Part shown: piece after piece, positions 3,842-63,159 of the stretch
How positions within the stretch are numbered: position 1 is the stretch's first letter
Layout: each line of letters starts with the position of its first letter
From: a virus
Lineage: Duplodnaviria; Caudoviricetes
IMG/VR virus record: IMGVR_UViG_3300042914_003272
Coordinates: 11,164 to 75,163 of that record
Reading direction: 5' to 3' (one strand)
DNA: 64,000 nt
The notes under the pieces: model-generated
Told to the model about the DNA's origin: nothing
Database searches by the model: none
Seen by the model: the letters and a program-made list of their open reading frames with translations, nothing else
Position numbers and translations under genes: made by a program

Positions 3842-4106
3842 CGGATGTTACCCTAAAGGCTCTTTATCCTTTAGCTCTTACAGTTAAACCACTACCTGTA
3901 AGTCCAGACTATCTCTTCAACTCAGTGAGTTGTTCGGCACTCGTGTTGGGATTATTGCTTGAGTTGCTCACCCATTAGTCGTTACACCTTCCTGGGTACT
4001 TATTACTCTTCCCCTGGCTTGGCACGGTATTTGCCATTTAAGTGGCGGCATCCACCGTTTTCACCGAATTATTGCCTACTTGTTGCCAAGTAGCGAGACA
4101 ATATTC
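3842..4106 (-). ncRNA. group I self-splicing intron (265 nt, no ORF) in major capsid gene
   Basis: 5' exon ends in U (AGA U|), intron ends in G (..AUCCG|UA UAU); P7 strands GUAACGACUAA and GAAGAGAUAGUCU; P9-like hairpins; in-frame rejoin. Confidence 0.9.
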
Positions 4107-8394: not shown

Positions 8395-10138
8395 AATTTG
8401 AATATCCTGTTGAATAGTTAGGGATGTCTCCAGGTTGTACTGGAGTTAATTCAGGGTTGTAATCTAATTCCTGGTAAAGGGTTTGAATTGACCTATTTAT
8501 CAATGGGATGAGAGGTATTTCAGATGCTAAAGGAGCATTATTTTGACTGTTAGGCAGTTGTCCCATTTGTCCGTAAAGCTGAAGCATTTGCCCTGTAGAA
8601 GATGCAACTGCACTCATATATCTAAATGGGTATCCACCTTGCAACATTGCTTCTAATTCTTTTTCAGTTTTATTAGGAAATACGGTTCTTAAAGCCTCAA
8701 GACTTCTTACTCCTAATTCCTGATAGTTTCTAGCTGCAATAGTAGCTCGTTGGATATCATTTGCGTCAGGCTCAAATACTTCCCCTTTATGTCGCCATTT
8801 AACTTCTCTACTCCCGATAGGTTGTAACTGTCCTTTTACTCTTCCTACTGGAGATAAGCCAAATACATTGGGTGGGATTTTATTCTTATCAAGTAATCCT
8901 GCAATAAATTCATTAGTTATTTGCGAAATATCTGGTTGTCCAGTTTCTTTATCAAACTTATTTAAAGCTGCTGCAAGTGAGAGTCTAAATAAGTCCTCTT
9001 CTGCTGCAATTGCCATCTCGAACAGTTTGCAGATGCCGTAGGTGTATATAGCTTCGCATTTTTTGGATGCTGTTGCATTAACTCTACCGTAAACCGATTT
9101 ATTCGCGTAAGCTGTGGCGTTAGAACTAATTCCTCTTTCATCTATTCCTCCTAGAGCGTAATGGATTGCTTCTCTATTATCTTGTACATGGCGCACATGG
9201 TCAGGAGATATAGGGTCAGGTGCTATATACCCAAATCTTTCATCTCCCTGAACATTACCAATTACTTTTTTAACTTTGCCGTTTACACTCTTTCCATAGT
9301 TTGTGGGGTCTTGATTTACTGTACTAGGAGTAGAGCCATAAAAACCAGAGGCACTAGACATTGTCCTGGATTTACGTCTGTCTTCATAAGCCTCTGTAAC
9401 AACTTCTTTAATGGACCGTGTAGTAACTAAACTCGGATTACCAAAAAAGTCTAGGTTTTCATCAATAGCTAGGTGTTGGCTGTCATGTTTTTCTATTTGA
9501 GATGCTAGTTGAACAAACTCACCTACTCCGGGTTCTCCTGGTTTAGACGGATTATTTTTAGCAACAACACAAGGGATAAAACCTAAAGTATTCTTAGTGG
9601 TTTTAACATTAGTTGAAAAAATTGCCTGCTGGTCTTGTTCAAAGTTAGGAGGAGCTTCAGAATAAGTCTGTGTAATTGTTTCAGAATTAATTGTTAACTT
9701 AATCCACTTAGTTTGATTCTGATAATTTCCACGCTCTTTATAAGAATAACGGATTACGACTTCATTCAATTCACCATCAAGATTATAGTAGTCTCTAAAC
9801 TCATCTTTGTCAAAGAAATAAAATTTATAACTACCTTCTTTGGTTGGTCTAAGATAGAAAAGAACTTGACCTTTACCTAGATGTCTTTTCCAAATTTCAT
9901 CTAGGTAAATGCCAACCTTATTTTGCTTCCAGATGTTATCTAAAAACTTTTTTCTACTATCAAAATCATCGTCCTGGTCTGGGTATATTTCTATTCCTTG
10001 TCTAACCCCAAACATTATCATTTGAGCTAGGTGGTTGTGAATGACAAGAGTAGAGCCACCTACATTTTGTTTGTATTCTCTGGCATATACAGCTTCTAAT
10101 ATTTGGTTAATTGTTGCCATAATCTCGTAACCATACAT
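7940..10138 (-). CDS. portal protein
   Basis: 732 aa; NTLGFIPCV..N..G.GEF..L..QI..HD portal-like motif; position upstream of scaffold/MCP. Confidence 0.8.
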   Translation of the reverse strand: MYGYEIMATINQILEAVYAREYKQNVGGSTLVIHNHLAQMIMFGVRQGIEIYPDQDDDFDSRKKFLDNIWKQNKVGIYLDEIWKRHLGKGQVLFYLRPTKEGSYKFYFFDKDEFRDYYNLDGELNEVVIRYSYKERGNYQNQTKWIKLTINSETITQTYSEAPPNFEQDQQAIFSTNVKTTKNTLGFIPCVVAKNNPSKPGEPGVGEFVQLASQIEKHDSQHLAIDENLDFFGNPSLVTTRSIKEVVTEAYEDRRKSRTMSSASGFYGSTPSTVNQDPTNYGKSVNGKVKKVIGNVQGDERFGYIAPDPISPDHVRHVQDNREAIHYALGGIDERGISSNATAYANKSVYGRVNATASKKCEAIYTYGICKLFEMAIAAEEDLFRLSLAAALNKFDKETGQPDISQITNEFIAGLLDKNKIPPNVFGLSPVGRVKGQLQPIGSREVKWRHKGEVFEPDANDIQRATIAARNYQELGVRSLEALRTVFPNKTEKELEAMLQGGYPFRYMSAVASSTGQMLQLYGQMGQLPNSQNNAPLASEIPLIPLINRSIQTLYQELDYNPELTPVQPGDIPNYSTGYSNYDQYSNQLPISGVSGNATGVSTSTKSRSSSSISPAVPTYPTPLQSSGVLPLNGINQQSQQPGLMEGQLNQQLAIPPEYTVGIPSAGATVTDVTRNSQPQQPLLGSQPGYGSTPAGIPPDLAVSAREPGSIWQQLFPTFSKAFTKRKPKPKN

Positions 10139-12468: not shown

Positions 12469-12553
12469 GTACAGGGGCAATTGCCCCTTTTTTTTATGTG
12501 GGCTACGCCCTGTCTAGTAATTGTAGTTAGCAAAATAACGGTTTATAAAAGAT

Positions 12554-13485: not shown

Positions 13486-13568
13486 GTCTTGCAGCTTGTT
13501 GTTCTGGCAAAGCTATTTTTATGGTCGCTACGCTCCCTATATATAGTTGTAGTTAACGAGGTTTGGTT

Positions 13569-21055: not shown

Positions 21056-22216
21056 ATGATAGCTATTCAAATAAAAACCAAGGTTGGGCGGTGTGAGTCG
21101 TGCCACAAATTTCGTAATAACATGGAGTGGCAAGTAGAGAGTAGAGTAGTTTGCATTGACTGCTTTAAAATGCTCAAAAACCAAAAGCTAATAGATGAAG
21201 TAGTTAAACGAGTTGAGAAGGTTGAAGTAGATACAACTAAAACAGGCAAAAAAGTTAAAGAAGATAAGCCTAAAAGAGAAATAACCAACTATAGACAGAC
21301 AGTATTAAACCACCTAAAAAACACTGATAAACCTTTATCTGTCAGAGAGATGTATGCAGATAGAGTATCAAGTAAAGTCACCCTGGAAAGATGGTTGAAA
21401 GTCTTACTGGCAAGTGGTGAAATAGTAACTATGAAGTCTACAGCCAGAGCCTATTACATAGATGCTGATAGAAAAGATTTACTTGATGAGTATATAGAAA
21501 GTCTTAAACCAAAGAAAAAGACAACTTTACCTGATGAAATATTAAAAAGATTAAAAAGTTTATCACGTCCATCTACTGCATCCCAAATTAATGAGGAGAA
21601 AACTTGGGTCAAAAAGTCTGTTTATACTGCACTAGTTAAGTTGGTCGAAACTGAAAAAGTTGTTTTTATTAAGCTCAATAAAGTTAAAAAAATCTATATT
21701 GACACTGACAGAAAACATTTACTTGATGAATTTAACCAATATAAGAAGGTAGATGTTTTAGGTGGAAACAGAAAAAAAGCCTTAGATTTTATTAATTCAA
21801 ATAATAGAGTTACTTATATAAAAGATTTAACTAATGTATTAAGGGCGGATAAAAGTACATCTTTAAGGGTGGTTCATGAACTCATAGAATTAGGGTTAGT
21901 TAAATGCGCGAAGGGTAGAAGACACAATGCCGCTTTGGTTATTGTGCCAATCAATAATGAACATCTACTTGAACAATTTGAATTTGTAACTTACGACTCA
22001 ACAGAAAATATATTAAGAAGGTTTATGGAAGAAGGTAATGCGGTAACATTAGACCAGTGTTATTTTGTTGTTGGCTGCAAGTCTGGTAGTGGTGGGACTA
22101 GAAGATATGTTCGGAGGCTTTTAAAAGAATGGAAGTGTGAAATATCTGAACTAAATGGAGTTAAAACTTACCGTTTACCTTGCCTCTATCCTCTTTCTGA
22201 CCCCAGCAGCTTGTAA
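21056..22216 (+). CDS. Zn-finger + tandem winged-HTH DNA-binding protein
   Basis: CxxC..CxxC N-terminus; repeated wHTH-like units ending YIDADRKDLLDEY / YIDTDRKHLLDEF; very basic. Confidence 0.6.
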   Translation: MIAIQIKTKVGRCESCHKFRNNMEWQVESRVVCIDCFKMLKNQKLIDEVVKRVEKVEVDTTKTGKKVKEDKPKREITNYRQTVLNHLKNTDKPLSVREMYADRVSSKVTLERWLKVLLASGEIVTMKSTARAYYIDADRKDLLDEYIESLKPKKKTTLPDEILKRLKSLSRPSTASQINEEKTWVKKSVYTALVKLVETEKVVFIKLNKVKKIYIDTDRKHLLDEFNQYKKVDVLGGNRKKALDFINSNNRVTYIKDLTNVLRADKSTSLRVVHELIELGLVKCAKGRRHNAALVIVPINNEHLLEQFEFVTYDSTENILRRFMEEGNAVTLDQCYFVVGCKSGSGGTRRYVRRLLKEWKCEISELNGVKTYRLPCLYPLSDPSSL

Positions 22217-23686
22217 CGCTATCGCAGAGGCATCTAAGCAGTCATCATGTGATTTACTTCCAAAGTTTACAAGCTCATCTATAACTTCATCTTTGAGCTT
22301 GAACTTATATTTATTGTACCTCACCACCCCAGAGGCGTAAGCCCCACTGATTGATAGGAGATGGGCTAACTTATCTCCCTTCAGTCTGTAGGGGTAACAG
22401 TTGATGTCGTATAAACCTTTTTCGTTAACAACATAACGTTGAAAGTCTCCCTGCAAAGATGACTGATAAGCTACTGACTCAACGTAAATGTTGAATGGTA
22501 CACCATCTTCATACCATTCTTCATACATTCCCAATAAGGCATCTAGTATCTGTAAGTTACCTTGCCATTTACCTCTACGGTAATCAAGGAAATAAAATTT
22601 ACCATCCAATACTCCCAATAACATCATCACTGTGTAGTCTGCTTTCTGTTTTAAACTAGCAGCTAAATCTACACCAACAACATAATTATCAAACTCAGTG
22701 GGAATGTTTTCAAAGTAAATCCATCCTGGTTCTAAACCAATATCTTCCAGTGGAACAATTGTATTCTGGTATTGGTAGGCAAACGCCAAGGGGTCTTCTT
22801 GTCTACGTCCTTGCAAAACTTCTAGCTTTAACCATTCTTCCCAAAAGCTATACTCATTTCCCTCTTCATCTATGAGTATTGCGCTTTCCTGAATTTGATA
22901 CCATCCCTTGTCAGGGGTAAAAGCAGTGCAGTGAATATCATCAGGACGGAATCTAGTACCCAAAGAAAGTTTACGCCCTCCTGGTAGCAACGTAGGGTTA
23001 ATAGAAGATGATACCAACTTTTCTAGTTTAACCCTGGCTTCTCCTGTAGCCATTTCATCTACTGATTTAATTAAGTCATCAAAAATTACTAGGTTAAAGC
23101 GTTTACTGACAATACCACCCTTTACGCCAGCAGCAATCATGGTAAATCTCTCAGTGCCACTAGATTTAATACCAGCGTAACTAAAATCTATAGCCCAATA
23201 GCTGTCAGCCCATCGGTGTTTTGCTGGGATAACTGTAGGGAATACTTCTTGGTATTCTGGACTACTTATAATATCTTTTATAGCAGCAGATTTAGCACGA
23301 GCTAATTCAATACTGTTACTTACATATAGTATTTGTAATACTCTTTTAGCTAATGCGTGTTTACCTATAGACCACGCAAGAAATAGACCCAATACTGTAG
23401 ACTTAGCACTTCCGCGTGGGGCGAGTAAATCTATGTCTACACCTGCTATACCTACAAGATTCTCACTATCTTTTCCTGTAATCCAATGTTTTACCCACCC
23501 CAGATGGTGTTTGGCTAGAACAATAGGACGCTCAGAGTTACGGGTAACATATTCACAGAAGAATGGAAACTCATTCTGTGCTTTTACCATTTCTTCTGAT
23601 GGTGCTGTAATCATAGCCTCACGGGCTTTATCTTTAGCTCGTTCTCTAGCAGCATCCCGTTGTGTTCTTAGTAGTTGATTAGCCAT
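22175..23686 (-). CDS. terL: terminase large subunit
   Basis: LAPRGSAKST Walker A, LVIFDD Walker B, GTRF motif III, VGVDLA and HDDCLDA nuclease motifs. Confidence 0.92.
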   Translation of the reverse strand: MANQLLRTQRDAARERAKDKAREAMITAPSEEMVKAQNEFPFFCEYVTRNSERPIVLAKHHLGWVKHWITGKDSENLVGIAGVDIDLLAPRGSAKSTVLGLFLAWSIGKHALAKRVLQILYVSNSIELARAKSAAIKDIISSPEYQEVFPTVIPAKHRWADSYWAIDFSYAGIKSSGTERFTMIAAGVKGGIVSKRFNLVIFDDLIKSVDEMATGEARVKLEKLVSSSINPTLLPGGRKLSLGTRFRPDDIHCTAFTPDKGWYQIQESAILIDEEGNEYSFWEEWLKLEVLQGRRQEDPLAFAYQYQNTIVPLEDIGLEPGWIYFENIPTEFDNYVVGVDLAASLKQKADYTVMMLLGVLDGKFYFLDYRRGKWQGNLQILDALLGMYEEWYEDGVPFNIYVESVAYQSSLQGDFQRYVVNEKGLYDINCYPYRLKGDKLAHLLSISGAYASGVVRYNKYKFKLKDEVIDELVNFGSKSHDDCLDASAIALQAAGVRKRIEAR

Positions 23687-26915: not shown

Positions 26916-28088
26916 TTACCTTGCTGCTTGATAGATTTGTGCAATGCTATTAGCTACAGATTGAGGCATCTCAGCATACCTTGATAACAAATCAGATGCT
27001 TGCTTTGCTGTAAACTCAGTCATGTAGTTGCGACGGTTAATGTCATCACGCTTTTTGAAGACCTCGGCAGCTTTGTCTTCGTTGCGCTGCCATATTCTGT
27101 TTTCGTAGTCCTCCATTTCCTGCCGACTACGAAAGCCTTTCTGATAGATTGCTTCATCGTAAGGGTTGTAGATTTTTAGATTATCTTCAACCCTAGCGGT
27201 CTCGTTGTTTTGCTTTATTTGCTGTTGACTCATTCTATTTCGTCCATCAAAATCTGTGTTAAACCCTACAGTGTTAGCAACAGCGTCAGCACCACCAGCA
27301 AGAACTCTACCAACACCTTTTGAGAGGTTAGCACCAGTTAGTTGGTCGCCAACAAGAGCTAATGCAGCACCAGCTTTTACTACATTATTGCCAGGAATAG
27401 CATTCCAGACTCTACCAATATTATTTCCAGTGGTACGAAAGCCTCTACCTATGGCTCTTCCTATGTCACCTGGAACTTCTCTCGCAGCCCAGCGAGCAGC
27501 CTCTTCAGGTGTTGCATTTAATAATGGGTCAGCTTGAAATATAGCCTTATTCCTAGCGTAATCGTAAGGAATGTCTTTTAATTCATTGCCAATATTAAGC
27601 ACGGTGTTACCACCAGCAACAACCACGCCCCCTTTAACAATCCAGCCAACTATATTCCCGTTATCATCAACCTCTGCAATATCGCCTGTTCTTTGGTCTT
27701 GTACATATTGAGACATATTATTTTTAACTCCTGTATTTTTACCCCTAACGGCTTCATCTAATCTATCAGCAGTCCATCCCCCGGCAAAACCACCTAAACC
27801 TTGTGTTGCTAATGAAGTACCCAATCCTGCAAGTCCACCGATAGCACCACCAGCAAGTGTTCCTACTCCTGGTGCTAAGGCAGTACCAAGGGCAGCCCCA
27901 ACCTTAGCACCAGCAGCAGTGGCAGCACCAGTGGCGGCTAAACCACCAAGGGTAGAGCCTACAGCACCAGCACCAGCCCGAATATCATCTTCTCCCTGTT
28001 CTTTCCCGCTTTGGTAGTCTATAAAACCACCGACTACAGGCATACCATAATTGAATGCTTTACCTGCTATCCTGCCAAAGTTACCCAT
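26916..28088 (-). CDS. glycine-zipper internal virion protein
   Basis: Extensive GxxxG/AGAxxG segments; 390 aa. Confidence 0.55.
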   Translation of the reverse strand: MGNFGRIAGKAFNYGMPVVGGFIDYQSGKEQGEDDIRAGAGAVGSTLGGLAATGAATAAGAKVGAALGTALAPGVGTLAGGAIGGLAGLGTSLATQGLGGFAGGWTADRLDEAVRGKNTGVKNNMSQYVQDQRTGDIAEVDDNGNIVGWIVKGGVVVAGGNTVLNIGNELKDIPYDYARNKAIFQADPLLNATPEEAARWAAREVPGDIGRAIGRGFRTTGNNIGRVWNAIPGNNVVKAGAALALVGDQLTGANLSKGVGRVLAGGADAVANTVGFNTDFDGRNRMSQQQIKQNNETARVEDNLKIYNPYDEAIYQKGFRSRQEMEDYENRIWQRNEDKAAEVFKKRDDINRRNYMTEFTAKQASDLLSRYAEMPQSVANSIAQIYQAAR

Positions 28089-33868: not shown

Positions 33869-34082
33869 GGTAAACTTAGTTTATTTTGCTTGCTTTAAAT
33901 AATAACATAACTCAGGTTTAAACTAAAGAAGGTTTTTATGGACGCTACGCGTCCTAGTTATAGTTTTAGTTCCTTCGGAGTTAGTATTCTTTTGGGATTA
34001 GGAGTAAAGAGTTTTTTATGGGGTGCTACGCACCTATTTTTGTAGTTGTAGTTTTAGTTTTGAATTAAGTTGGAGGGGAATT

Positions 34083-34460
34083 ATGCTGGATAGAATTGCT
34101 TTAAATCTAATTTCTTGTGGGTACATTTTTGTCAAAGAGTCCTGTGGGAAGTATTATGGCTACCCAGAAGACCTCCGTTGGTTCGGACATGGTGAAGCTA
34201 TTTACGCTTTACCTCTACTCGATTTTCCTCAGATTGAGGATGAAGAAAATTATGTAATGCCTGAAGAGGGTATCACCGACCCTTATTGGGTAAGAAAGAA
34301 TGGTGAGGATACTTATTCTTATACATCTTCCAGGATATACGAATCGAGCATTCCCGTTCTTTCCGAAGAAGGCGAACCTATTTACGCAGTTAGACGGGAA
34401 CTGATGTCCCTGGAATCTCAGTTTATCGCTGAGGTTTGGCAAAGGGATGTACAAGGCTAA
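34083..34460 (+). CDS. hypothetical early protein
   Basis: GGAGG RBS before ATG 34083; after class A motif 34025. Confidence 0.6.
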   Translation: MLDRIALNLISCGYIFVKESCGKYYGYPEDLRWFGHGEAIYALPLLDFPQIEDEENYVMPEEGITDPYWVRKNGEDTYSYTSSRIYESSIPVLSEEGEPIYAVRRELMSLESQFIAEVWQRDVQG

Positions 34461-34578
34461 CGCCTAAATAGGATTGAACTAACTCACTTCAATTTGACTT
34501 AGGTTGAATTGAAGTGAGTTATTTTTATGTGGGCTACGCGTTTTTGTGGAGTTGTAGTTAAATAATTGAGTTGAATGT

Positions 34579-34755: not shown

Positions 34756-34824
34756 GGGATGTACAAGGCTAACGCCTAATCAGTTTTGAGTTAAGTTTTG
34801 AGTTAAGTTCAGTACAGGGAAGTT

Positions 34825-35031
34825 ATGAAAGCAGAAAAAATAAATCAAAAACTAAAACAAAAACCTTTTGTCGAAAAGAGTGAAGAGGGCATTGCCTTAT
34901 ATTGGGTAGTAAAAGGCGGGAAGTTTCGACTAACAAACTTCCACCCATGCGAGGCTCTTGCATGGGGCGAGTTCTGGGGTGCTGTAAATATTTATGCAGA
35001 TGATTCTGCGTCGGTTGACTGGGAAGGCTAA
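34825..35031 (+). CDS. hypothetical protein
   Basis: After class B motif 34768. Confidence 0.5.
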   Translation: MKAEKINQKLKQKPFVEKSEEGIALYWVVKGGKFRLTNFHPCEALAWGEFWGAVNIYADDSASVDWEG

Positions 35032-35192
35032 CGCCTAAATAGGATTGAACTAACTCACTTTGATTTGACTTAGGTTGAATTGAAGTGAGTTATTTTTATG
35101 TTCACTTTGTGCTGATTTAAACAAAAACCCCTTAGTAGCTAGTTTGGTCGCTGTCTACTAGGGGGTCTTTTATCTAACATAGAGTCTATTCC

Positions 35193-37604
35193 ATGTCTAA
35201 GCTCATTCTAAAACAGTATGACCTGGTTAGTCAACAGTGGCTACCAGAGCATTGCAAGTCAACTTACCACAACACAATGTTGGGGCATCTATTCCCTAAC
35301 GTTAAGTTTGCTATCGGTGATGTGGGTAGTTTATTAGCTGATGAAAATCCCAATATAGAATACATCTCTGAAGTTCTTGACAAAGGCTTTGAAGAGTATG
35401 TATTAGTCGGTGGTAGTGGTAGTAGAAAACAAGGCAAGGCAATCTACTCAACATCAGAGTTTGACTGTTTTACCAGATTTTTTGGTAGCAATATGAATGC
35501 TGCCAACTACGGTTCTAACTTAACAACTGAATGTAAGTTGATTAAGGATATCAGCATTAAGCTGCTAGTAGTTGATGACGGTGATAGCAAGTCCCGCAAG
35601 TACCGCACAGGTGATTGTCACGGGAAATGTTCTGAGAAGTTTGCTATGGAGTTTGTGGATTCCATATTCAATCCATTCCAGTTTAGGGCTTTCAATATCA
35701 ACCCTGATTGGTGTGCAAAGGGTACGATTGCAGTTGGTTTTAAGAAAGGTAAGTATGACCTTGTTTTACCTACGTCCTGTTTTAAGGGCAATAAGGTTAA
35801 ACCTGGGGAGTATGAGTTGGCTAAGTTGGCTTTTGGTGTGGTGTTTAAGTCACCATCCCTAAAAAGGTGGACCGAGACTCATGACATTCTAGGGCTTCAA
35901 CTAGAGCGTGAGATGTGTGGTTACGACTACCGCAAGTCTAATCTTTCATATTCAGTAGTGCAGTTTCTGCCTTGGGATGCAGTGTGGGAAGACATAGTTC
36001 CCAATGCACAAAAACAGGCACAGGAACTTAACACCCTAGTCAGCAACCCTCAGAGGTTGTTAGATTACCTCCTGCGGAAAGGAGATGAAGGTAAAGGTCA
36101 AGAGAAATCTCGGTTAAGTCAGATTTTAAAGTCTGACGTACACGGTCAGCTATCTACCCACCCATGGGCTATCAAGGCAACTATGGGAATGTTGAGTAGA
36201 AGATGGCGTGAGATTGCTACATCAGGTGGAATTAAGTTTAACTCATCTATGGTGATGCCAGATGAGGAATTACCAGATAACTCCTGTTACGTTCCAGGGT
36301 TAGCAGATGGTGAAGAGGTAATCGTATTTCCCTATCCTTGCCGTTGGAAGTACGACATCAAGGTATGGACAAATCACATACTCCCTAAGTGGGAACAGAT
36401 GGAAGGAGTTATTGTAGGTAACTGCAATACTCTAATGAAACTTGGTAGAGATACCGACGGCGATTTTCTTATGTGGCTACCAGCATCTAAGTTACCTCAC
36501 GTAGCTCAAGTTGTTAAGTCTTTTGGTGAACCTGACCTAGACCAGGCAGGGTTAAAGCCTAAGAAGATTCCCATTGAAGGCACTCTAGGACAAATTCTGG
36601 TTAAGAGTATGGAAAACTTAACTGGTCTGATAACCTACTACATAGCCAAATCCTGGGCGTGTAAGAGGGAAGACTTTGTTTTCCAGTTAGTTCCACAACT
36701 TCAAGCAGCAGTTGATTCCCTCAAAGGTGCATTACCACCTGACAGAAAATTAATAGGTTCTATTGGTAATGCACTCAAATCTCAACGAGTTGACTGGTTG
36801 AAACAGGTCAAGGATGACGACTGCTACCTATTCTACCAGATGTCATCACGGAGTAATGATACTGTAGGACTGTTGATAGCAGAGGTCAACAAGCTTTGGG
36901 TTAAGCCTGAGTTGAAGGCAACTAACCTTAGACCATTCAATGTTTTATTCTCACACCTCAATCCTAGCAAAAAGTGGATTGAGAGGGCTGAGGTTGTGTC
37001 TAACGAATATTCATCTGCCATGTATGCTGCCGGATTAGAACAACGTAGGTGGGAAAAGGCTAATCCAGGGAAGAGAGTTCCCAGAATTGTTAAAGAACGC
37101 AGATTATCTTCCCAGAAAGATATCTGTAAATACTATGAGGGGATACTTAACCATTTACCCCCTGCACAGAGGATGATGGCTGTAGCCGCTTTCTGGGACG
37201 TCAAACACAGGAATAACAAAACTGGTATTCCTAATCCTCAAGCCAAAGACCACGAAGACAGGGTAGGCTTCTCAACTAACATCTGTTTTTTGCTAGGCAT
37301 AGAACAGATATGTGAGCAGCTTCAGGAATTGAGGATTGACACACTCAATATTGTAGGCAGGACTTACTCAGACTTCCGCAATCATATTTTCAAAGGTGAA
37401 ATGATTGTCATTACCATTGAGTCAGGCATTGGTAATGACGGAAAGCATTATTTCTTTGCCAAGTCCAATGGTTATAGCATTGGTGTAATCCCAGTAAAGG
37501 ACACGCCACCTATTAAATTTGGAGATGAGATAGTGGTTTATCTCCACACCAGGTTTGATAAGGTAGGACATCCGAGTTACAACGAGGCCTTTCTTGTGAA
37601 GTAA
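35193..37604 (+). CDS. single-subunit two-barrel RNA polymerase (YonO/QDE-1 RdRP-like family)
   Basis: Catalytic GRDTDGDF (DxDGD, ~36444-36467), GDCHGKCS (cf. DGxGxIS), FQFRA..AKG (cf. FQIR..GxKG), late Q.AVD..K motif. Confidence 0.8.
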   Translation: MSKLILKQYDLVSQQWLPEHCKSTYHNTMLGHLFPNVKFAIGDVGSLLADENPNIEYISEVLDKGFEEYVLVGGSGSRKQGKAIYSTSEFDCFTRFFGSNMNAANYGSNLTTECKLIKDISIKLLVVDDGDSKSRKYRTGDCHGKCSEKFAMEFVDSIFNPFQFRAFNINPDWCAKGTIAVGFKKGKYDLVLPTSCFKGNKVKPGEYELAKLAFGVVFKSPSLKRWTETHDILGLQLEREMCGYDYRKSNLSYSVVQFLPWDAVWEDIVPNAQKQAQELNTLVSNPQRLLDYLLRKGDEGKGQEKSRLSQILKSDVHGQLSTHPWAIKATMGMLSRRWREIATSGGIKFNSSMVMPDEELPDNSCYVPGLADGEEVIVFPYPCRWKYDIKVWTNHILPKWEQMEGVIVGNCNTLMKLGRDTDGDFLMWLPASKLPHVAQVVKSFGEPDLDQAGLKPKKIPIEGTLGQILVKSMENLTGLITYYIAKSWACKREDFVFQLVPQLQAAVDSLKGALPPDRKLIGSIGNALKSQRVDWLKQVKDDDCYLFYQMSSRSNDTVGLLIAEVNKLWVKPELKATNLRPFNVLFSHLNPSKKWIERAEVVSNEYSSAMYAAGLEQRRWEKANPGKRVPRIVKERRLSSQKDICKYYEGILNHLPPAQRMMAVAAFWDVKHRNNKTGIPNPQAKDHEDRVGFSTNICFLLGIEQICEQLQELRIDTLNIVGRTYSDFRNHIFKGEMIVITIESGIGNDGKHYFFAKSNGYSIGVIPVKDTPPIKFGDEIVVYLHTRFDKVGHPSYNEAFLVK

Positions 37605-37804: not shown

Positions 37805-40800
37805 ATGAATAATGAAATTGAGTATTTAGTATCTCAGATGACTCCTGGACAATTAAATGCTTTCATCAACCAATCATTTCCTGATTTAGTTGGTGGGAAC
37901 TTTATGTTTAGACAGGGGCAAACTGAACAAGATAAAAAAAGAATTGTAGCAGATAGATTATCTAAAGCTGTAGCTAGTCCTGCTGTGGATGCTACTCAAG
38001 AAGCCGTACTTAATAGTTTAGGTAGGTACGTTAGCCCAGAAGTTCAACAATCTCAACAATCTAGAACAGCTAACATTGGCAACTATACTAACTTTGATGA
38101 CGAAAGCTACGGTGCTGTTCTTGGAAGTTATGACGATTTTAATTACGATTTATTAGATGATTCAGCTTATATTCCATCAGCAGGTATTCAAAAAAGCACT
38201 GGAGCTTCACAAGCACCGTTAGATATAGCAGGTGTCCAGAATGCTATTGCACAAGACCCTAATTGGCAACCAAGAAATGACTATGAGAGATGGGCGTTAG
38301 GGTTTATAAGAGGTGAGGATTCAGGTGTTAATCCTACCGTTGTTCCTGTAAATACTAATAGAACTGCTGGGATTCAAACGCCTAAAACACAAGGTGAGAA
38401 ATATCAGTTCAATGTATTAGAAAATAGAGAAAACAGAACTGCAAATATTCCGAATATTCCTATACCTAAACCAGTTGGTATTAAAACAGATTTGCTAACT
38501 GGTTTGGTTTATGACTATAACAGAGGGTTGGTTTTCAACCCTGTTAATGGCGTTACTCAAAAGTTAATTAGTGATGGTAGAACTATTCCTACTAAATTAG
38601 AAATTCCTAATTTAATTCAAGGTGAACAAAGTAATTCTATTCCTGTACCATCAATACGTCCAAATATAGGATTTAACGTCAATGAGAACCCTGAATTTGC
38701 AGGTGATGGCAACTTTTTTATTCAACAAGGTAATCAACTTACTCGTACTACTCCAGGAGTGTCTTACCAATCAACAGCATTATCGAGCAATAATAATAGC
38801 CAATATAAATGGCACGCACCTTTAGCTATTAAAAATAATTCCACTTTAGCTGAGTACACTAATCTCTCTCCACAAGCTAGACAATATTTAATTGATAGAC
38901 AATGGAATAGAGACAAAGAAAGAGCTTATATTCAACAACAACAAGAAGTAGGTAATCAAATAACTGATGGTGAAGGTAGGTTTTTTGATACTGCTAGTTA
39001 CATTGCTAACAGAGATAATTCAGTTCCCTATCCTAGAACTATTGGCATAGCACCAAAAATAGCAGGGGTAGGACAAGAATACTCTCCAGAAGTAATGTCC
39101 AGGATAGGACAAGGTGGGTTCTTAAATAACGCTGGTTCTATTAAGCTACCTAATACTTGGATAGATAAAGAAACTAATCAGAGGGTGTTTAGTAAGGGTA
39201 GGGGAACTCCCGCCACTATTGTTTACACAGGTGACAAAGAAGGTAGTGCAATCCCAAGTATTTCTATTCCTAGAATTCAAGGAGGTGGGAATGAATTAAT
39301 TAGCTTTGAGGATGCAGTTAAACGTCAACTAATTAGTCCTGAGCAATACAATAATTATATTAATCAAGCTGCTCAAACTAAGTTCATTCCTGCTGGTAAC
39401 ATGGATAGTTTTAATAGAGATAATATAAAACTCTATGAGACTACAGATAATCAAGGAAAAAACTACCGTGCTACTTACATGAATCCTCTAACAAAAGAGG
39501 TTTTTAATGTTACTCAAAATGGTGGGTTTTATCTAGTAAGACCCGCAGTAAGTGAGGAGTCTGGTGGTCTACCTATTAGAAAACAAACTACTAATCTTGC
39601 TCAGGAAATGACTGACATTAACCGAGTAATGAGAGAAGGTGGTAGAGATAATTTAGTTGACATTATCAGAGAAGACCCTACTAATCCAGGATTAGAGGCA
39701 TTTACTAGACCTGTTCCTGCTATTAATCCAATTACAGGTGAGACAATTAATAAATATGTTCACACTGGGAATTTAGTTAATCCAGAAACTTTACAACCTG
39801 AATCTATTGAACCCGGGGTTGATTACAGTCAATACGCTGTTTTAGACAAAGAAGGAAATCCAATTCCTACTGACAATTTTATTGAGATTTGGGATAAAAG
39901 AATGGGAACTCCCAAGCCTCCTAATGTTCAATTACTTGGGGAAGCAAGCAGGGATGCTTTCAAGCCTGTTGCTAGAAAGTGGGTAGACGATAATAACCCA
40001 CAGGATTTATTCAACTACTTTAACGCTAATGCCGAAAGTAGTGGACAATCAATGCAAGCTCTTGATTTATCTAGAGGTGGCAGTAGAACCGCAGGGGTTA
40101 GAAAAGCACCTGCTGATATGTATATTTCACCTTATCTGGATTATGATGCTGCTGGAAACTTGCAACTCAGAAGAAATTTTGTTCCAGAAAGAGGAGAAAC
40201 TACAATATTTAATTCTGGGAATTCTATAACAGTTTCTGCACCTACAGGATATCAAGATACTAATGCCACATCTGCATATCCATCACTTCAAGAAACAGAT
40301 TATCTTGGTGGCAGGTTAGCTTTTAATCCTGATGGAATTGTTGTTGATGTTCCTAGCAATGCTCCAGCCGCCAAAGGTATAAATAACTTTACCCCAGCAA
40401 GTGAGTTTACTTCTAGTTCCCCACAAGTTGTTAGGGATACACGAACTGGAAAAGTTATTTATGACCCTAACAGAACTGTCTATGTCAGAACAGGTAACAC
40501 AGGACTTGATGATGATAACTTTGCAGTAGTTCCTTATAAAGAAGACAAGCCTATAGTTAGTCGTGTTGCTAATATCAATAGTCCACAATCAATAGTTATA
40601 AATGACGGAAAGGTTGTTGGCAAAAACGCATTAGTTCAACAAGAAATCTTTGGCAATCAAGAAGTTTACCCTGGAGATTTTACCAACACTAAATTCTACA
40701 GATTTAAAACCAATCCTGAAACTCCTTTGGGTGCTTACAAGGTAAGTGAGTACGGAACACCAATTCCCAATGAGTATGGATTTCCTGAAGAAGTATTAAC

Positions 40801-43459
40801 ACCGTTATACGGAAACCCGTTAACCCTCCCAAGGTCAGCACAGATAGCTAATAAAGCTGAATTTATATCTCGTCCTCGCTTAATGGTACAGGATTTTAAA
40901 GGCATAACTCCTGACTATCAGCCTATTCCCGATGGTATGAGCTATGAAGAGGCAGACAGGAAAGGACTATTGAATCCCATCTTTAATAGCAGAACAGCAG
41001 GGTTAAATAGCAGTTACCAAATCCCTTTACCTAAAGGTGTGGGGTTAGCTAGGGTTCTTGATGAGTCTAACCCCAGAACTCAAGCGGCAATTGCCGCACA
41101 AGTGGCGAGGCGGCAAATCCCTTCCTTAGTTCAACAAAGGCAGTCTATACTTGCTGACAATTCTTTTACACTTGAAGAAAAGAAAGCTAAAGTTGATGAA
41201 TTATTTGCACAACCATTAGCAGTTCTTGGTGGTGATGAAGTTGATGCCTTAATTAAGATAGCGAAGAAGGGAGAATCTAAACCTGCATTTGATAGAAAGT
41301 ACACTATTACTCCTAGTAGAACAGCAGGTGTTGAGAGTCCACAATATACTCAATATTTAGACTTAGCAACTTATGATGATAGTCCTGACTTGACATTCTG
41401 GAAAGAGAATATTCCTGGTGTAGTTCCCCAAGGTGTAATTGATGGTGCTTATCTTCCAGTAACAACTATTCCTAGACCAATAAATAAGGAAGGTAAAAAA
41501 GGCTGGTTAATAAATGACCAAATTTACACTACAGAATCCGGTAGACAGGTCAGGGGAGATAAGGCTGTTAACTATGTCAATATCCCACTTAATTTAGATA
41601 GTGTTAGCTCTTACCTTCCTAAAAGCAAACGTGAGGAATTAGAATTAAAAGGTTTTAGTGATGATGCTATACAAGCTTGGGCAAATGTTAACCCTAATCT
41701 TGCTAGAGATAATGCCTTGGCTAACGCCAAGATATTAATTGATGGAAAATATTATGATGTAACCCCACAAGCTACTGTAGCCGAATTTAATCCTGTTGCT
41801 GGTGGGAATTATGCAATGGCTGAGACCAGGAGTCAAGGTAGAGCAGCAAGGATAGATTTACCATTTAAAGCTGGTGCAAATATATCTGAACCTACTCCTG
41901 AATGGATTGCCCAACAAGCTGCTGGTGGCAATTTAAGATTTAATGCCGACGACTATATTAGTCCTGATGATAAGGCAATTTTAAATCAGAAAGAAGTTTA
42001 CAATGCTGGTTATGAAGAACCAGCAGATATTCTTGGAGCTATCAGCAGAGTTCAACAGAAGAAAAATCAGATTGATGCAGTAATTAGTAACAGAAAACAA
42101 CGTCAAGTAGCTAAACCTCAAAGTAATATTGAAGTTCTAAAATACAAGTCCTATGTACTAGGTAAAGAGGCACAAGAGGCAAGGACTGATATTGATAGGC
42201 TTAGGGCTTTACAACAAAAAGCACAAATAGATTTATTGATAGACTCTCCGCAACAGAGAGTTGCTAATAATCTAGATGGGAAAATAAGTTCATCTATTGA
42301 TGAGAACTATACAACCCTTGGTCAAGACAGGTCTTTTAGTATTAATCCAGAAATCTTGCCACTATCTGATGCGGAAAGGGTTGAGTTTATAAGAAATTAT
42401 CAGCCTAACGCTTCTGATGTTTTATTGAACACAAAAGATATAGCTCCTGTTCAATCTACTCGTCCTAGAGATTTACAAGAATACTCTGACTATTTAGCAG
42501 AAGAAATTAACCGTGCTAGTGCAGCACATAACGCAATAGTCAACATTGAAGATTCGCCTGAAATTGTAATCAAAAGACAAGGGAATCCACAACAATTAAA
42601 CGCATTTATTTCTGCCGCAAATACTTTGGGAATGCAAACTGAAGACGATTCTTTTAGGTATAAAAATAATCCTGATGAAAAGTTAACTGCTTCCGTTACT
42701 GGTAGTTTACCTAATACATATTTACCCTATGAACAAGCACAGGAGTTAAATGAATCTAGGCTTTATCATCCACAAGATATTCAGGATGCCATAGAAAGTG
42801 GTGATTTTAGTGAACGGCAAATTAGGTCTATGCAAAATGCTAGACTACTACCTGCTTACCGCACACAACAAAAAGTTGAACTACCTACAGTTCCCACTTC
42901 TAATGTTGCTAAATTAGGTAGGGTAAAATTTGTTGAAGACTACATGGGAAACCCTGAAAGTATGTTGGAAGGTATGGGGCTTGATGGTGGTTCTATCCCT
43001 GGGGATTATATTCCAAATCCGTCAAAAGTGATTCAGCAATTTGTACCCGCAGGCAATCAGGTAATTAATATAGTTCCCAGCAGTTCCGAGAACTATCAAT
43101 ACAGAAGTGGTGGCAATGCCGATTATGGAATATGGGATATGCCTATTACTAATGACTTAGGAGGTATGGGATTTGATGGTGGTTCTATCCCTGGGGATTA
43201 CATACCCCGTCAAGTTAGAACCAATGTACAGCAAGGGGTTCAGTCAGAACCTCAACAAGTTAGAACCCCTAGAACCCCTGGAACTCAATCTTTCAATACT
43301 TCCATAGACCCTGAAGTTAAAATAACAGGTGGTATGAAGATTCCTAAATGGGCTATTCCTGCTACACTGGGTGCTGTGTGGTTAGGGTTAGCTGCTAACG
43401 CCCGTAGACAACAGGATGAGGACAGGAGACAACGGCAAGGTGTGGTAAACAGATACTAA
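37805..43459 (+). CDS. giant (1884 aa) probable internal virion protein with C-terminal TM
   Basis: N/Q/P-rich; C-terminal WAIPATLGAVWLGLAA; internal repeats. Confidence 0.6.
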   Translation: MNNEIEYLVSQMTPGQLNAFINQSFPDLVGGNFMFRQGQTEQDKKRIVADRLSKAVASPAVDATQEAVLNSLGRYVSPEVQQSQQSRTANIGNYTNFDDESYGAVLGSYDDFNYDLLDDSAYIPSAGIQKSTGASQAPLDIAGVQNAIAQDPNWQPRNDYERWALGFIRGEDSGVNPTVVPVNTNRTAGIQTPKTQGEKYQFNVLENRENRTANIPNIPIPKPVGIKTDLLTGLVYDYNRGLVFNPVNGVTQKLISDGRTIPTKLEIPNLIQGEQSNSIPVPSIRPNIGFNVNENPEFAGDGNFFIQQGNQLTRTTPGVSYQSTALSSNNNSQYKWHAPLAIKNNSTLAEYTNLSPQARQYLIDRQWNRDKERAYIQQQQEVGNQITDGEGRFFDTASYIANRDNSVPYPRTIGIAPKIAGVGQEYSPEVMSRIGQGGFLNNAGSIKLPNTWIDKETNQRVFSKGRGTPATIVYTGDKEGSAIPSISIPRIQGGGNELISFEDAVKRQLISPEQYNNYINQAAQTKFIPAGNMDSFNRDNIKLYETTDNQGKNYRATYMNPLTKEVFNVTQNGGFYLVRPAVSEESGGLPIRKQTTNLAQEMTDINRVMREGGRDNLVDIIREDPTNPGLEAFTRPVPAINPITGETINKYVHTGNLVNPETLQPESIEPGVDYSQYAVLDKEGNPIPTDNFIEIWDKRMGTPKPPNVQLLGEASRDAFKPVARKWVDDNNPQDLFNYFNANAESSGQSMQALDLSRGGSRTAGVRKAPADMYISPYLDYDAAGNLQLRRNFVPERGETTIFNSGNSITVSAPTGYQDTNATSAYPSLQETDYLGGRLAFNPDGIVVDVPSNAPAAKGINNFTPASEFTSSSPQVVRDTRTGKVIYDPNRTVYVRTGNTGLDDDNFAVVPYKEDKPIVSRVANINSPQSIVINDGKVVGKNALVQQEIFGNQEVYPGDFTNTKFYRFKTNPETPLGAYKVSEYGTPIPNEYGFPEEVLTPLYGNPLTLPRSAQIANKAEFISRPRLMVQDFKGITPDYQPIPDGMSYEEADRKGLLNPIFNSRTAGLNSSYQIPLPKGVGLARVLDESNPRTQAAIAAQVARRQIPSLVQQRQSILADNSFTLEEKKAKVDELFAQPLAVLGGDEVDALIKIAKKGESKPAFDRKYTITPSRTAGVESPQYTQYLDLATYDDSPDLTFWKENIPGVVPQGVIDGAYLPVTTIPRPINKEGKKGWLINDQIYTTESGRQVRGDKAVNYVNIPLNLDSVSSYLPKSKREELELKGFSDDAIQAWANVNPNLARDNALANAKILIDGKYYDVTPQATVAEFNPVAGGNYAMAETRSQGRAARIDLPFKAGANISEPTPEWIAQQAAGGNLRFNADDYISPDDKAILNQKEVYNAGYEEPADILGAISRVQQKKNQIDAVISNRKQRQVAKPQSNIEVLKYKSYVLGKEAQEARTDIDRLRALQQKAQIDLLIDSPQQRVANNLDGKISSSIDENYTTLGQDRSFSINPEILPLSDAERVEFIRNYQPNASDVLLNTKDIAPVQSTRPRDLQEYSDYLAEEINRASAAHNAIVNIEDSPEIVIKRQGNPQQLNAFISAANTLGMQTEDDSFRYKNNPDEKLTASVTGSLPNTYLPYEQAQELNESRLYHPQDIQDAIESGDFSERQIRSMQNARLLPAYRTQQKVELPTVPTSNVAKLGRVKFVEDYMGNPESMLEGMGLDGGSIPGDYIPNPSKVIQQFVPAGNQVINIVPSSSENYQYRSGGNADYGIWDMPITNDLGGMGFDGGSIPGDYIPRQVRTNVQQGVQSEPQQVRTPRTPGTQSFNTSIDPEVKITGGMKIPKWAIPATLGAVWLGLAANARRQQDEDRRQRQGVVNRY

Positions 43460-43498
43460 GAATACATGGGGCTAACGCCCCTTTAGTGGTGAGGTATC

Positions 43499-43822
43499 TT
43501 GGAAGTAACAATGTTAATAAGAAAAGAGAACACTCAGCTTACACTTAAAAAACATGGTGAAGATGAAAATGTTGTAATAGAATTTTCATTGATGGACAAA
43601 AAGGTTGTTTTAACAATTCACTTTTCCCATCAGAATTTAAGTACCAGGATTTATGACAATAGGTATGCAACTCTTGAACATTATCAACGGCTAATTCCAT
43701 TAGCTGCTGAAATAATTAAAGGTCGGGAAGAGTTTATTAAAGAACCATGTGGCTTTCTAGAACAACAGTCTTGGAAAGTTCAAAGCTTAGAAGACAAAGA
43801 GAATGCAATGCTAACGCATTAA
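43499..43822 (+). CDS. hypothetical protein
   Basis: After class B motif 43471; likely start ATG 43511. Confidence 0.55.
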   Translation: MEVTMLIRKENTQLTLKKHGEDENVVIEFSLMDKKVVLTIHFSHQNLSTRIYDNRYATLEHYQRLIPLAAEIIKGREEFIKEPCGFLEQQSWKVQSLEDKENAMLTH

Positions 43823-45143: not shown

Positions 45144-45209
45144 GCTAACGCCTAAATGTTTGTGAGGAAATGCAATAATTTCCTCTTTACTCACTTACCA
45201 GTTAAATCC

Positions 45210-45869
45210 ATGAACATTATCATCATTACGCTCACAGTTAACTTTGTAGAATCCTTTACTGATATCCCTGGGCAACAACCATTTTCAATTGCTCAGTGTA
45301 GTTATCTTCAAACTGACAAAGACGGTAATCCTATAGAACACTTTGTGACTATTAAAGGATTTAATAACTCCTACGATAAAACCTCTTCTGGCATTACCTC
45401 TGATAGATTAAGTTTATTTAAGCCAGGAATGAAAATGCTTGTTACAGGTCAATTATTTACTGAGCAAAAAGATAAGGAAACTAAACAAGTTATTGAACAG
45501 CCTTATATACTTGCCCATTCAGTTTGTCCAGTTAAGGCAGAAGTCAATTACAATACCATTTATCTTGCAGGTAAGATGATGAAAATGCCTGAAAAGAGAA
45601 TTTATGAAAGTGGCAAACTGTCTATCACTACTTCACTTTTAATTAAGGAAGGGAGGAAGGGGTATTTCTACAACGTCACTGCTTGGAATAAGCAGGGTGA
45701 AACAGTAGAAAGATATTGTCGCAAAGGTGAGAATCTTGGGATTGAAGGCACTTTAGTTTTTGAATCCTGGAATGACAAGACCACTGGTGAACCCAGGACT
45801 GGCATTAAGATTACTGCTAATAAAGTGCGACTGATGGGAAGTAAAGATTCAAAAGATGATGAGTTCTAA
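45210..45869 (+). CDS. ssb: single-stranded DNA-binding protein (tandem OB folds)
   Basis: C-terminal OB fold: VTAWNKQGE...KG..LGIEG.L..ESW.DK.TGE.R; acidic DDEF tail. Confidence 0.8.
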   Translation: MNIIIITLTVNFVESFTDIPGQQPFSIAQCSYLQTDKDGNPIEHFVTIKGFNNSYDKTSSGITSDRLSLFKPGMKMLVTGQLFTEQKDKETKQVIEQPYILAHSVCPVKAEVNYNTIYLAGKMMKMPEKRIYESGKLSITTSLLIKEGRKGYFYNVTAWNKQGETVERYCRKGENLGIEGTLVFESWNDKTTGEPRTGIKITANKVRLMGSKDSKDDEF

Positions 45870-47595: not shown

Positions 47596-47702
47596 CAAAG
47601 AATATAAGTTAATTTGTTAACACCTTTCATAATCATTGGGGCAATCGCCCCTTTGATTTTGATGTACAATGTTTACTAGCAAAATAAACAGAATCAATAG
47701 TT

Positions 47703-48320: not shown

Positions 48321-48395
48321 CCAAGAAGGCTAACGCCTTAATAGTAGTGGAGTAACTAAAGGTAATTATGACTGAGGGTAAATATTGTATCAACC

Positions 48396-63107: not shown

Positions 63108-63159
63108 CCCCGCACACAGTTAATGGGGCAATTGCCCCAACAGTAGTGAGGTTGATTAA

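Follow-up and report, generated by a model that had tools for sequence, protein, structure and literature searches.

A predicted two-barrel RNA polymerase of a likely cyanophage and candidate hairpin promoters of its plus-strand genes

Background

The studied relatives of the enzyme described here are YonO of phage SPbeta, gp64 and gp96 of phage P23-45, gp66 of crAss phage phi14:2, and the eukaryotic polymerases QDE-1 and RDR2. YonO was proven to be a DNA-dependent RNA polymerase for late phage genes (PMC5467207), and gp64 was reported to read its own GC-rich promoter motif upstream of the early and middle genes of P23-45 (10.1101/2022.12.01.518664). For the simplest two-barrel polymerases, it is still an open question how start sites are found: in the accounts cited, the YonO promoter is undetermined (PMC5467207) and no motif was found for gp66 (10.1101/2020.03.07.982082). 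In this work, we analyzed a gene for an 803-residue protein on the plus strand of a 64,000-nt window of the tailed-phage record IMGVR_UViG_3300042914_003272 (Duplodnaviria; Caudoviricetes), together with the short hairpins repeated upstream of this and other genes. The window comprises bases 11164-75163 of the record, which has 75,163 bp and is rated 99% complete; all positions below are those of the window.

The virion RNA polymerase of coliphage N4, an injected enzyme with a T7-like right-handed fold, recognizes as promoter a short DNA hairpin that is extruded and lies a set number of nucleotides before the start, aided by a single-stranded DNA-binding protein (SSB); its early promoters are few and have a 3-nt loop. 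To our knowledge, hairpin promoters have so far been known only for this unrelated enzyme. The initial annotation of the window likewise took hairpin-promoter recognition to be undescribed for the two-barrel family, and a literature search, supplementary files not covered, found no hairpin-type promoter described for two-barrel polymerases. The explanation favored here, to which we assign a probability of about 0.6 as a whole, is that the gene encodes a two-barrel phage transcriptase that has one class of hairpins, class A, as its promoters.

Results

Fold and identity of the polymerase

The motifs listed in the initial annotation were all found in the 803-aa open reading frame (ORF): GDCHG (residues 140-144 of the translation), FQFR (162-165), AKG (175-177), FPYPC (379-383), DTDGD (420-424) and QAAVDSLK (504-511). 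In an alignment of 36 homologues that are 20-87% identical to the query, 27 columns are invariant, including D141, Q163, R165, K176, G177, K198, P382, D420, D422, D424, Q504, D508 and K511. Since these key residues are invariant across the 36 homologues, the motifs are regarded as real and under strong selection.

A structural model was built by AlphaFold2 on the 36-sequence alignment (mean pLDDT 87.7, pTM 0.83). Foldseek comparison of this model with the PDB gave 31 matches at E <= 0.001, and among the matches listed all are two-barrel RNA polymerases or complexes with one: maize RDR2 (4e-15), QDE-1 (1.3e-14), Arabidopsis RDR2 (about 2e-12), gp64 of the P23-45 type (8f72; 1e-9), the P23-45 virion polymerase gp96 (1e-6) and crAss gp66 (1.4e-5); the largest subunits of cellular polymerases were weak matches. 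With VIA-align, RDR2 reached Z 23.4 over 597 residues (root-mean-square deviation 5.9), gp62 of phage P74-26 Z 23.3 over 506 residues, gp64 Z 23.3 over 440 residues (deviation 3.5 A), QDE-1 Z about 19 over about 600 residues and gp96 Z 12.8 over about 345 residues, and the polymerases of cells and of African swine fever virus aligned at Z about 10-11 over the second barrel only. All of the VIA matches are co-linear with the model and none extends beyond residue 715; most span residues 1-715, those to gp64 and gp96 less. Among the viral models of BFVD, 19 matches were obtained at E <= 0.001, two of them named RNA-dependent RNA polymerase (RdRP), plus A7XX94 of P23-45.

Because a confident model matches the folds of RDR2, gp62/gp64 and QDE-1, the protein is assigned as a single-subunit two-barrel RNA polymerase. 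It is almost certainly an RNA polymerase, and it probably acts as a phage transcriptase on DNA. By structure, the enzyme falls in the clade that includes QDE-1 and RDR2, the RNA-silencing polymerases of eukaryotes, as well as the non-virion polymerases of the Thermus phages P23-45 and P74-26. The double-psi beta-barrel fold on which the initial annotation had staked its assignment is thus supported by the co-linearity of the model with RDR2, gp62/gp64 and QDE-1. The accompanying label, YonO/QDE-1-like, holds for the two-barrel fold and, by structure, for the likeness to QDE-1; the likeness to YonO extends to the superfamily level only. No entry named YonO appeared among the matches listed in the structure searches, and a profile of the 36 family sequences had no match in SPbeta (SPBc2, 134,416 bp) at E <= 10, in a search run without a positive control.

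At the sequence level, the protein matches one PHROG family of unknown function (5e-29), and the PHROG family named for RdRP, phrog_4291, was reached at E 0.33 only; phmmer against the PDB gave chance matches only. In a profile alignment to QDE-1, FPYPCRW..DI falls on ARSPAHFPSDI and GRDfDGD on GGDYDGD, an alignment that is non-significant (E about 1) and that agrees with the annotated reading of FPYPC as the counterpart of the usual (R/K)xP motif. The Pfam RdRP family PF05183 was matched by 8 of the 36 family members at E <= 0.1 (best 1.2e-5). Among eight distant representatives, one passes the curated cut-off of this family (26.4 vs 23.8 bits), one falls below it and six have no PF05183 match. 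By these sequence comparisons, the polymerase family is placed as a sister clade at the edge of the PF05183 model. Of the six, five gave no domain match, and one, P0107 (1221 aa), is a polymerase homologue to which an unrelated domain, a 2OG-Fe(II) oxygenase (PF13532, E 1.6e-34), is fused at the N terminus.

R446 and P448 of Rpb1 and D837, K979 and K987 of Rpb2 are described as belonging to a set of eight residues that no two-barrel polymerase lacks (PMC2919709). Of this set, the phage protein has the proline and the three aspartates of the catalytic loop. The first, beta-like barrel of the model contains strands at residues 116-127, 143-147, 162-169, 172-183, 190-193 and 205-219, and D129, D141, Q163, R165, K176, G177, S195 and K198 are invariant in it across the 36 sequences; D129 or D141, K176 and K198 may be the equivalents of Rpb2 D837, K979 and K987. 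The C-terminal six-stranded domain had no Foldseek match at E <= 0.001. Its best VIA score was Z 6.0, below the noise level of 7-8, followed by WED-like domains of Cas12/TnpB, HIRAN and OB barrels at Z 3-5, and it was left without a fold assignment; at a guess, this domain might bind nucleic acid.

Class A hairpins mark the starts of plus-strand genes

Class A hairpins span 14 nt, with a stem of 5 bp and a loop of 4 nt, and usually read (A/G)(A/G)GGC-TAAC-GCC(T/C)(T/C), with variants such as GGGGC-GATT-GCCCC. In 30 aligned sites, a spacer of exactly 7 nt separates the hairpin from GTGA. For the core GCTAACGC, 33 copies were counted in the window (29 on the plus and 4 on the minus strand) against 0.52 expected, an enrichment of about 60-fold, and TATGNNNGCTACGC with at most one mismatch occurs 13 times, always on the plus strand, against 0.31 expected. 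About 30 class A sites are spread over the plus strand from 2.7 to 63.1 kb, one of them within 48322-48359. In the alignment of 30 sites, 92% of the stem cells are paired vs 78% in shuffles, and the compensatory cells number 25 vs 6.5, a value reached by none of 500 shuffles; the two outer pairs vary among A-U, G-C and U-A.

The position of class A relative to genes was examined by scoring the junctions between neighboring genes with a relaxed definition, which yields 48 plus-strand and 15 minus-strand sites vs a background of 11-18. A plus-strand class A site is present at 6 of the 7 divergent junctions, at 18 of the 34 tandem junctions between plus-strand genes, at one of the 17 tandem junctions between minus-strand genes, and at none of the 6 convergent ones; the seventh divergent junction has two class B sites. 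As class A is carried by divergent and not by convergent junctions, it marks plus-strand gene starts rather than stops; terminators would be distributed the other way round. The distance from class A to the start codon is 5-60 nt, typically about 40 nt. The hairpin lacks a T-run and, with -5.1 kcal/mol compared with -15 to -24 kcal/mol for nearby terminator-like hairpins, is too weak to be a terminator.

The cluster of class A and class B motifs reported upstream of the polymerase gene in the initial annotation is real. Copies of GCTAACGC start there at 34456, 34768 and 35027 and copies of the class B heptamer GCTACGC at 33944, 34025 and 34533.

Hairpins of the form GGGGC-(A/G)AT(T/C)-GCCCC were also observed at 12469-12490, 2687-2700, 47638-47651, 63125-63138 and other positions. 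Some of them are followed by a T-run and class B, in a terminator-like arrangement, and others by N7-GTGA, in a class-A-like one; the same GGGGC stem seems to serve two contexts.

Class B and a third upstream element

Class B consists of a T-run, ATGG, a GC-TAC-GC hairpin, about 10 nt and TAGTTGTAGTT. Its 17 copies all lie on the plus strand and are confined to 11.5-20.5 kb and 33.9-34.6 kb; one of them is at 13513-13566. Covariation in the class B stem is weak, with 82% vs 76% of cells paired, a level reached by 12 of 500 shuffles.

A third element, (T/A)AGCAAAATAAAC(A/G)G, was noticed at 12 sites of the window on both strands, 10-16 nt before a start codon at most of them. Plus-strand sites include 2775, 21032, 32537, 45942, 47679 and 54080, and minus-strand sites are found at 53853, 51857, 33889, 32512, 16275 and 11011. 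The element precedes the first genes of minus-strand blocks, namely those for DnaB and dCTP deaminase and the gene starting at 32485. It could be a leader, a substitute for a ribosome-binding site, or a third promoter class for genes without class A and class B.

Hairpins in related phages

Three related phage genomes (G002, G003 and G004) and one metagenome locus (L088) contain repeated hairpins of their own. In G002, whose genome is complete and bears terminal repeats and whose polymerase is 46% identical to that of the window, GCTAACGC occurs 20 times, always on the polymerase strand, and class B is absent. In G004 (polymerase 26% identical), the hairpin is GC-TTC-GC, followed after 7-9 nt by GTGA or TTGA; 11 of its 20 GCTTCGC sites are located 30-58 nt before the next start codon. 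G003 (polymerase 28% identical, 57% GC) has 14 copies of TTTCCGACGGAAA, and in L088 (polymerase 28% identical) the same stem recurs 8 times, its loop being GCCC or GGGC. The orientation of the genes in L088, which is GC-rich, gave no reliable call. Separately, GATGGCGCTACGCGCCCCGCAAGCTACGA was seen five times in G004 (the same as L017/L018, and also L008/L148), for example at 16885, 18089, 26516 and 33200 of the reoriented record; it shares with class B of the window the ATGG and the GC-TAC-GC hairpin.

Synechococcus phage S-EIV1, the only cultured phage with a similar portal, served as a control. It had no match to the polymerase, and no hairpin class above background, with a top count of 3 vs at most 3 in resampled sequence; the corresponding counts for the virus studied here are 13 and 6 vs at most 4. 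Repeated hairpins at loci L076, L081, L098 and L123 were rejected as promoter analogues, being AT-rich iterons, coding repeats or tandem repeats. At L076, dense arrays of the palindrome TAAA(C/T)GTTTA at 17.9-19.8 kb, near the polymerase homologue, look like replication-origin iterons. L029, on a Phormidium sp. chromosome, shows 21 copies of an AA|GGT|TT hairpin in 14 kb, at most 6 kb from the homologue, possibly a repeat array.

Distribution of the family and probable host

Homologues of the polymerase numbered 46 in a word-indexed search. When 1.84 billion cluster representatives were scanned in full with HMMER, 265 matched at E <= 1e-3, 174 of them at E <= 1e-10 and 44 at E <= 1e-30. In prokaryote genomes, with one genome taken per species, all 46 of the loci with relatives belong to cyanobacterial assemblies, mostly filamentous Oscillatoriales; they are 24-37% identical to the query (E down to 5e-158) and include Microcoleus, Coleofasciculus, Planktothrix, Lyngbya and Phormidium, as well as one labelled Candidatus Obscuribacterales. 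The nearest protein-atlas cluster, automatically named "RNA dependent RNA polymerase domain-containing protein", has 517 members, mostly from Cyanobacteriota. Cyanobacterial gene products were presented as one of five YonO-like families by Ruprich-Robert and Thuriaux in 2010 (PMC2919709), and YonO-like cyanobacterial proteins were mentioned again in the YonO paper (PMC5467207); the relatives of the phage polymerase are likely this cyanobacterial family of the 2010 review. Among cultured phages (50,697 records), tblastn with the polymerase gave no match at E <= 1e-5.

The virus portal has a single cultured-phage match, Synechococcus phage S-EIV1 (37.7% identity, E 4e-106). The cyanobacterial HIP1 octamer GCGATCGC occurs 41 times in G002, 10 times in G004 and not at all in the genome of this virus. 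By its sequence relationships, the virus is a likely cyanophage. The initial annotation had called it a cyanophage outright; the relatives of the portal and of the polymerase do point to cyanobacteria, and the missing HIP1 leaves that call likely, not proven.

Genome setting of the polymerase gene

The structural genes of the phage (Table 1) are on the minus strand, as are those for DnaB and an initiator. The plus strand has small early-type ORFs (11.5-21 kb and 32.7-35 kb), the polymerase gene, genes for an 1884-aa protein, SSB (45156-45869) and a UvrD-type helicase, and many small ORFs. Pfam and PHROG scans of about 40 neighboring ORFs found no sigma factor or other transcription factor, and in a crude D.D.D motif scan of ORFs of at least 80 aa, the DxDGD form was restricted to the polymerase gene. 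The 1884-aa neighbor was considered as a second polymerase and rejected, as the crude motif scan found no DxDxD in it. Its sequence contains repeated (S/N)RTAG and RTANI peptides and is hydrophobic over a stretch at the C terminus. In L006, a relative with a 46%-identical polymerase, the polymerase gene is followed by that of a weak homologue of this protein, 1429 aa long.

The nearest class A hairpin lies 166 nt before the start codon of the polymerase gene, and the same distance is found in relatives L002-L005. Sigma-70-type signals are not enriched over 32.4-38.2 kb, 11 being found vs 14.5 expected. Early expression of the gene followed by positive feedback, as proposed in the initial annotation, is possible, for example if the host polymerase stops at the terminator-like hairpins and the phage enzyme reads through. 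The segments 34453-34530 and 35024-35101 form a direct repeat of 78 nt with 97% identity; it joins a class A hairpin, the 19-bp terminator-like hairpin and a class B T-run, and its second copy lacks the class B hairpin.

Table 1. Positions of the polymerase gene, its predicted domains, the associated hairpins and other genes in the window
Feature	Position	Strand	Basis or remark
Polymerase gene, 803 aa, ATG start	35193..37604	+	ORF list, translation, AlphaFold2 model, structure matches
First (beta-like) barrel region, residues ~116-250, with GDCHG, FQFR, AKG and FKGNK	35538..35942	+	AlphaFold2 model
Second (beta'-like) barrel, residues ~348-430, with FPYPCRW and catalytic loop	36234..36482	+	Model strands 348-356 to 425-430; profile alignment to QDE-1
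DTDGD codons (residues 420-424), predicted metal-binding Asp triad	36450..36464	+	Three D invariant in 36/36; aligned with DYDGD of QDE-1
C-terminal six-stranded beta domain, residues ~716-803	37338..37601	+	Outside all polymerase matches; folded alone, pLDDT 85.7
Nearest class A upstream of the gene: AAGGCTAACGCCTA + N7 + TTGA	35024..35048	+	Two more at 34453-34477 and 34765-34789
Terminator-like hairpin 1, then ATTTTTAT, between class A and the gene	35046..35099	+	19-pair stem; -24.2 kcal/mol, z -7.2
Terminator-like hairpin 2 plus TCTTTTAT, ending 20 nt before the start codon	35127..35173	+	-23.1 kcal/mol, z -4.8; 0/200 shuffles as stable
Hairpin and T-run after the stop codon	37616..37657	+	-15.1 kcal/mol, z -4.1
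Example of class A: GGGGCTAACGCCCC + N7 + GTGA, 7 nt before the TTG start at 43499	43468..43492	+	30-site alignment
Class B element: TTTTTATGG + GC-TAC-GC hairpin + ~10 nt + TAGTTTTAGTT	33930..33983	+	Two more at 34011-34064 and 34519-34572
1884-aa gene adjoining the polymerase gene downstream	37805..43459	+	No Pfam or PHROG match
Major head protein	4105-5223	-	Pfam/PHROG scan
Portal	7940-10138	-	Pfam/PHROG scan
Terminase	22175-23686	-	Pfam/PHROG scan
Tape-measure-like gene	26916-28088	-	Pfam/PHROG scan

Discussion

Proposed mode of transcription and alternative explanations

In the favored explanation, the protein would be a catalytically competent single-chain polymerase with two double-psi beta-barrels, as modeled. 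It would most likely serve as the DNA-dependent transcriptase of the plus-strand non-structural genes and would start at class A hairpins, possibly by recognizing an extruded stem-loop, as with the hairpin promoters of coliphage N4. We infer the DNA templating, the link between the enzyme and class A, and the extrusion of the hairpin. The assignment of class A to the polymerase was made because class A is common to all the phages and class B is confined to close relatives; that the polymerase reads class A is, in our estimate, about an even bet. No other polymerase-like gene was found among the ORFs scanned, and neither hairpin class resembles a sigma-70 promoter by eye, the sigma-70 scan itself covering 32.4-38.2 kb. 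The initial annotation held that the enzyme reads one hairpin class; class A does mark gene starts and does vary as the polymerase diverges, and the link to the enzyme is circumstantial. Both gp66 and QDE-1 are reported to prefer single-stranded DNA templates (10.1101/2020.03.07.982082), and since this preference is found in the clade and the phage encodes an SSB, hairpin promoters would fit a polymerase of this kind. A tentative generalization, which we hold at somewhat less than even odds, is that phage two-barrel polymerases recognize sequence-specific DNA hairpins as promoters, with a hairpin proper to each clade. These would be GGC-TAAC-GCC in the virus studied here, GC-TTC-GC in G004 and TTTCC-GAC-GGAAA in G003, and in the present genome two hairpin classes might time the plus-strand genes, a proposal of the same tentative standing.

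Several observations weigh against the polymerase being a transcriptase with class A promoters. As regards the enzyme, no Pfam family was found for the protein even at E <= 10, and a sequence-level search of the PDB with the family profile brought up saposins (E 0.03) and QDE-1 (E about 1). The arginine position of R-x-P is occupied by P380, an arginine being present in only 3 of the 36 aligned members (P0040, P0046, P0047); judging by the alignment, R384, which lies two residues past P382 and is conserved in at least 90% of the 36 sequences, may substitute for it. As regards the hairpins, the junction test separates start from stop, not the DNA level from the RNA level, and class A could equally be an RNA element of the 5' leader. 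The polymerase gene itself is not directly behind class A, as two strong terminator-like hairpins lie between them. Comparable repeated GC hairpins were found at none of 43 cyanobacterial genome loci and, among 37 metagenome loci of at least 9 kb, at L088 only; as cellular and metagenomic loci are mostly without such hairpins, the trait, if real, belongs to phage genomes and not to the whole family. The control for hairpin abundance is a single phage, S-EIV1, and the class-B-like hairpins of G004 (ATGG + GC-TAC-GC) lie 270-577 nt from the next start. Parts of the region occur in three freshwater metatranscriptomes (the best with 58% of sampled words), data that consist of assembled contigs without starts, strand or levels and may include DNA carry-over, so that the coverage is not taken as proof of expression. 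In two studies, an RNA contig has its first base at 37806/37807, where the 1884-aa gene starts, which is a weak hint only.

An exchange of roles between the hairpin classes, with the polymerase reading class B, or reading both classes with differing strength or a cofactor switch, is considered unlikely. The 17 plus-strand sites of class B, mostly 30-49 nt before starts, stand in front of the small early-type genes (11.5-20.5 kb and 33.9-34.6 kb), and by eye class B is unlike a sigma-70 promoter; in both classes the loop is closed by C:G and ends in AC, and an AGTTGT(G/A) element lies downstream, and a class-B-like hairpin, ATGGCGCTACGCGCC, recurs in G004, where the polymerase is only 26% identical. 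However, the complete genome of G002, which shares the polymerase type and class A, contains no class B, the class B stem covaries only weakly, and the sites in G004 are remote from the next start, as given above. Transcription of the first genes would moreover require the enzyme to be injected with the DNA, and nothing marks the polymerase as a virion protein. Improbable, too, is an arrangement in which the enzyme is a transcriptase and the hairpins are not its promoters but RNA 5'-leader stabilizers, processing sites, operators for a phage RNA-binding protein, or sites of another DNA-binding factor. Such roles would suit the presence of class A in the would-be 5' leader of nearly every plus-strand gene, sometimes 5-20 nt from the predicted start, which leaves little room for both a promoter and a leader; the transcripts of gp66 were described as having no detectable common upstream motif (10.1101/2020.03.07.982082), and the YonO promoter is, in the account cited, still undefined (PMC5467207). 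Yet class A is the only conserved plus-strand element at 6 of the 7 divergent junctions, sigma-70-like signals are unenriched near the gene, and the invariant loop with the fixed 7-nt spacer to GTGA argues for a positioned protein-nucleic acid complex; different phage clades, furthermore, pair different hairpins with different polymerases.

The probability is very low, in our view, that the enzyme works outside general transcription, as an RNA-dependent RNA polymerase, a primase-like replication starter, or a producer of RNA for regulation or counter-defence. RDR2 and QDE-1, its closest structural relatives in eukaryotes, are RNA-silencing enzymes, no DNA polymerase or primase was found among the roughly 40 ORFs scanned with Pfam and PHROGs, and the chromosomal homologues of cyanobacteria lack phage-like hairpin arrays. 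Against this, the studied phage members YonO and gp64 are DNA-dependent transcriptases according to the sources cited (PMC5467207; 10.1101/2022.12.01.518664), and gp64/gp62 are matches to the model of the same quality as RDR2. Given that the phage encodes DnaB, an initiator and an SSB, the host primase could suffice, and a phage transcriptase is usually marked by just such a private polymerase beside a private motif that recurs across the genome.

If the class A hairpins are indeed promoters of this polymerase, they would be the first defined promoter for the QDE-1/YonO-like branch and would offer a simple in vitro system; with about 30 near-identical candidate promoters and a compact 803-aa enzyme, the question of start-site finding is directly testable. 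With this gene, the prokaryotic sister group of the RNA-silencing polymerases of eukaryotes gains a member carried by a virus, which bears on the phage origin proposed for the eukaryotic enzymes (10.1101/2020.03.07.982082). If the hairpins are not promoters, the gene would be one more uncharacterized phage polymerase of a family already flagged in cyanobacteria.

Comparison with known polymerases

P23-45 gp64 and P74-26 gp62 (8f72, 8f5m) resemble the present protein as single-chain two-barrel polymerases of tailed dsDNA phages, aligned at Z 23.3 over 440-506 residues. They differ from it in sequence (10-11% identity in the structural alignment) and in size (about 590 aa vs 803 aa), and the C-terminal beta domain of the phage protein studied here is unmatched in them. 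For P23-45, the promoter is reported as a GC-rich motif rather than a hairpin. A second, virion polymerase of P23-45 is fused to the tape measure protein, and the crude D.D.D motif scan found no counterpart of it here. QDE-1 (2j7n, 7y7p-t) and RDR2 (7w82, 7rqs) are co-linear with the model over about 600 residues at Z 19-23, with DxDGD and xP aligned. The identity is 10-16%, the eukaryotic N-terminal extensions are absent from the phage protein and RxP reads PYP; QDE-1 and RDR2 work in the RNA interference pathway, whereas the present gene is set in a phage genome with repeated upstream motifs. YonO of SPbeta is likewise a prokaryotic single-chain two-barrel polymerase, with kinship to the present protein at the superfamily level only. 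The crAss phi14:2 protein gp66 (6vr4) belongs to the same superfamily and to its QDE-1-like subgroup, and its preference for single-stranded or denatured DNA would fit hairpin or melted promoters; it differs in being a virion-packaged protein of 2180 aa with a DFDID motif and no common upstream motif, and its structural match is much weaker (TM 0.27).

The resemblance to N4 would be one of mode only; class A has a stem conserved in its pairing and a fixed 7-nt spacer to GTGA. The N4 enzyme has an unrelated fold, and here the sites number about 30, the loop has 4 nt and nothing marks the polymerase as injected. The class to which the enzyme belongs is known, with cyanobacterial members noted since 2010, and the gene is an uncharacterized new member of it.

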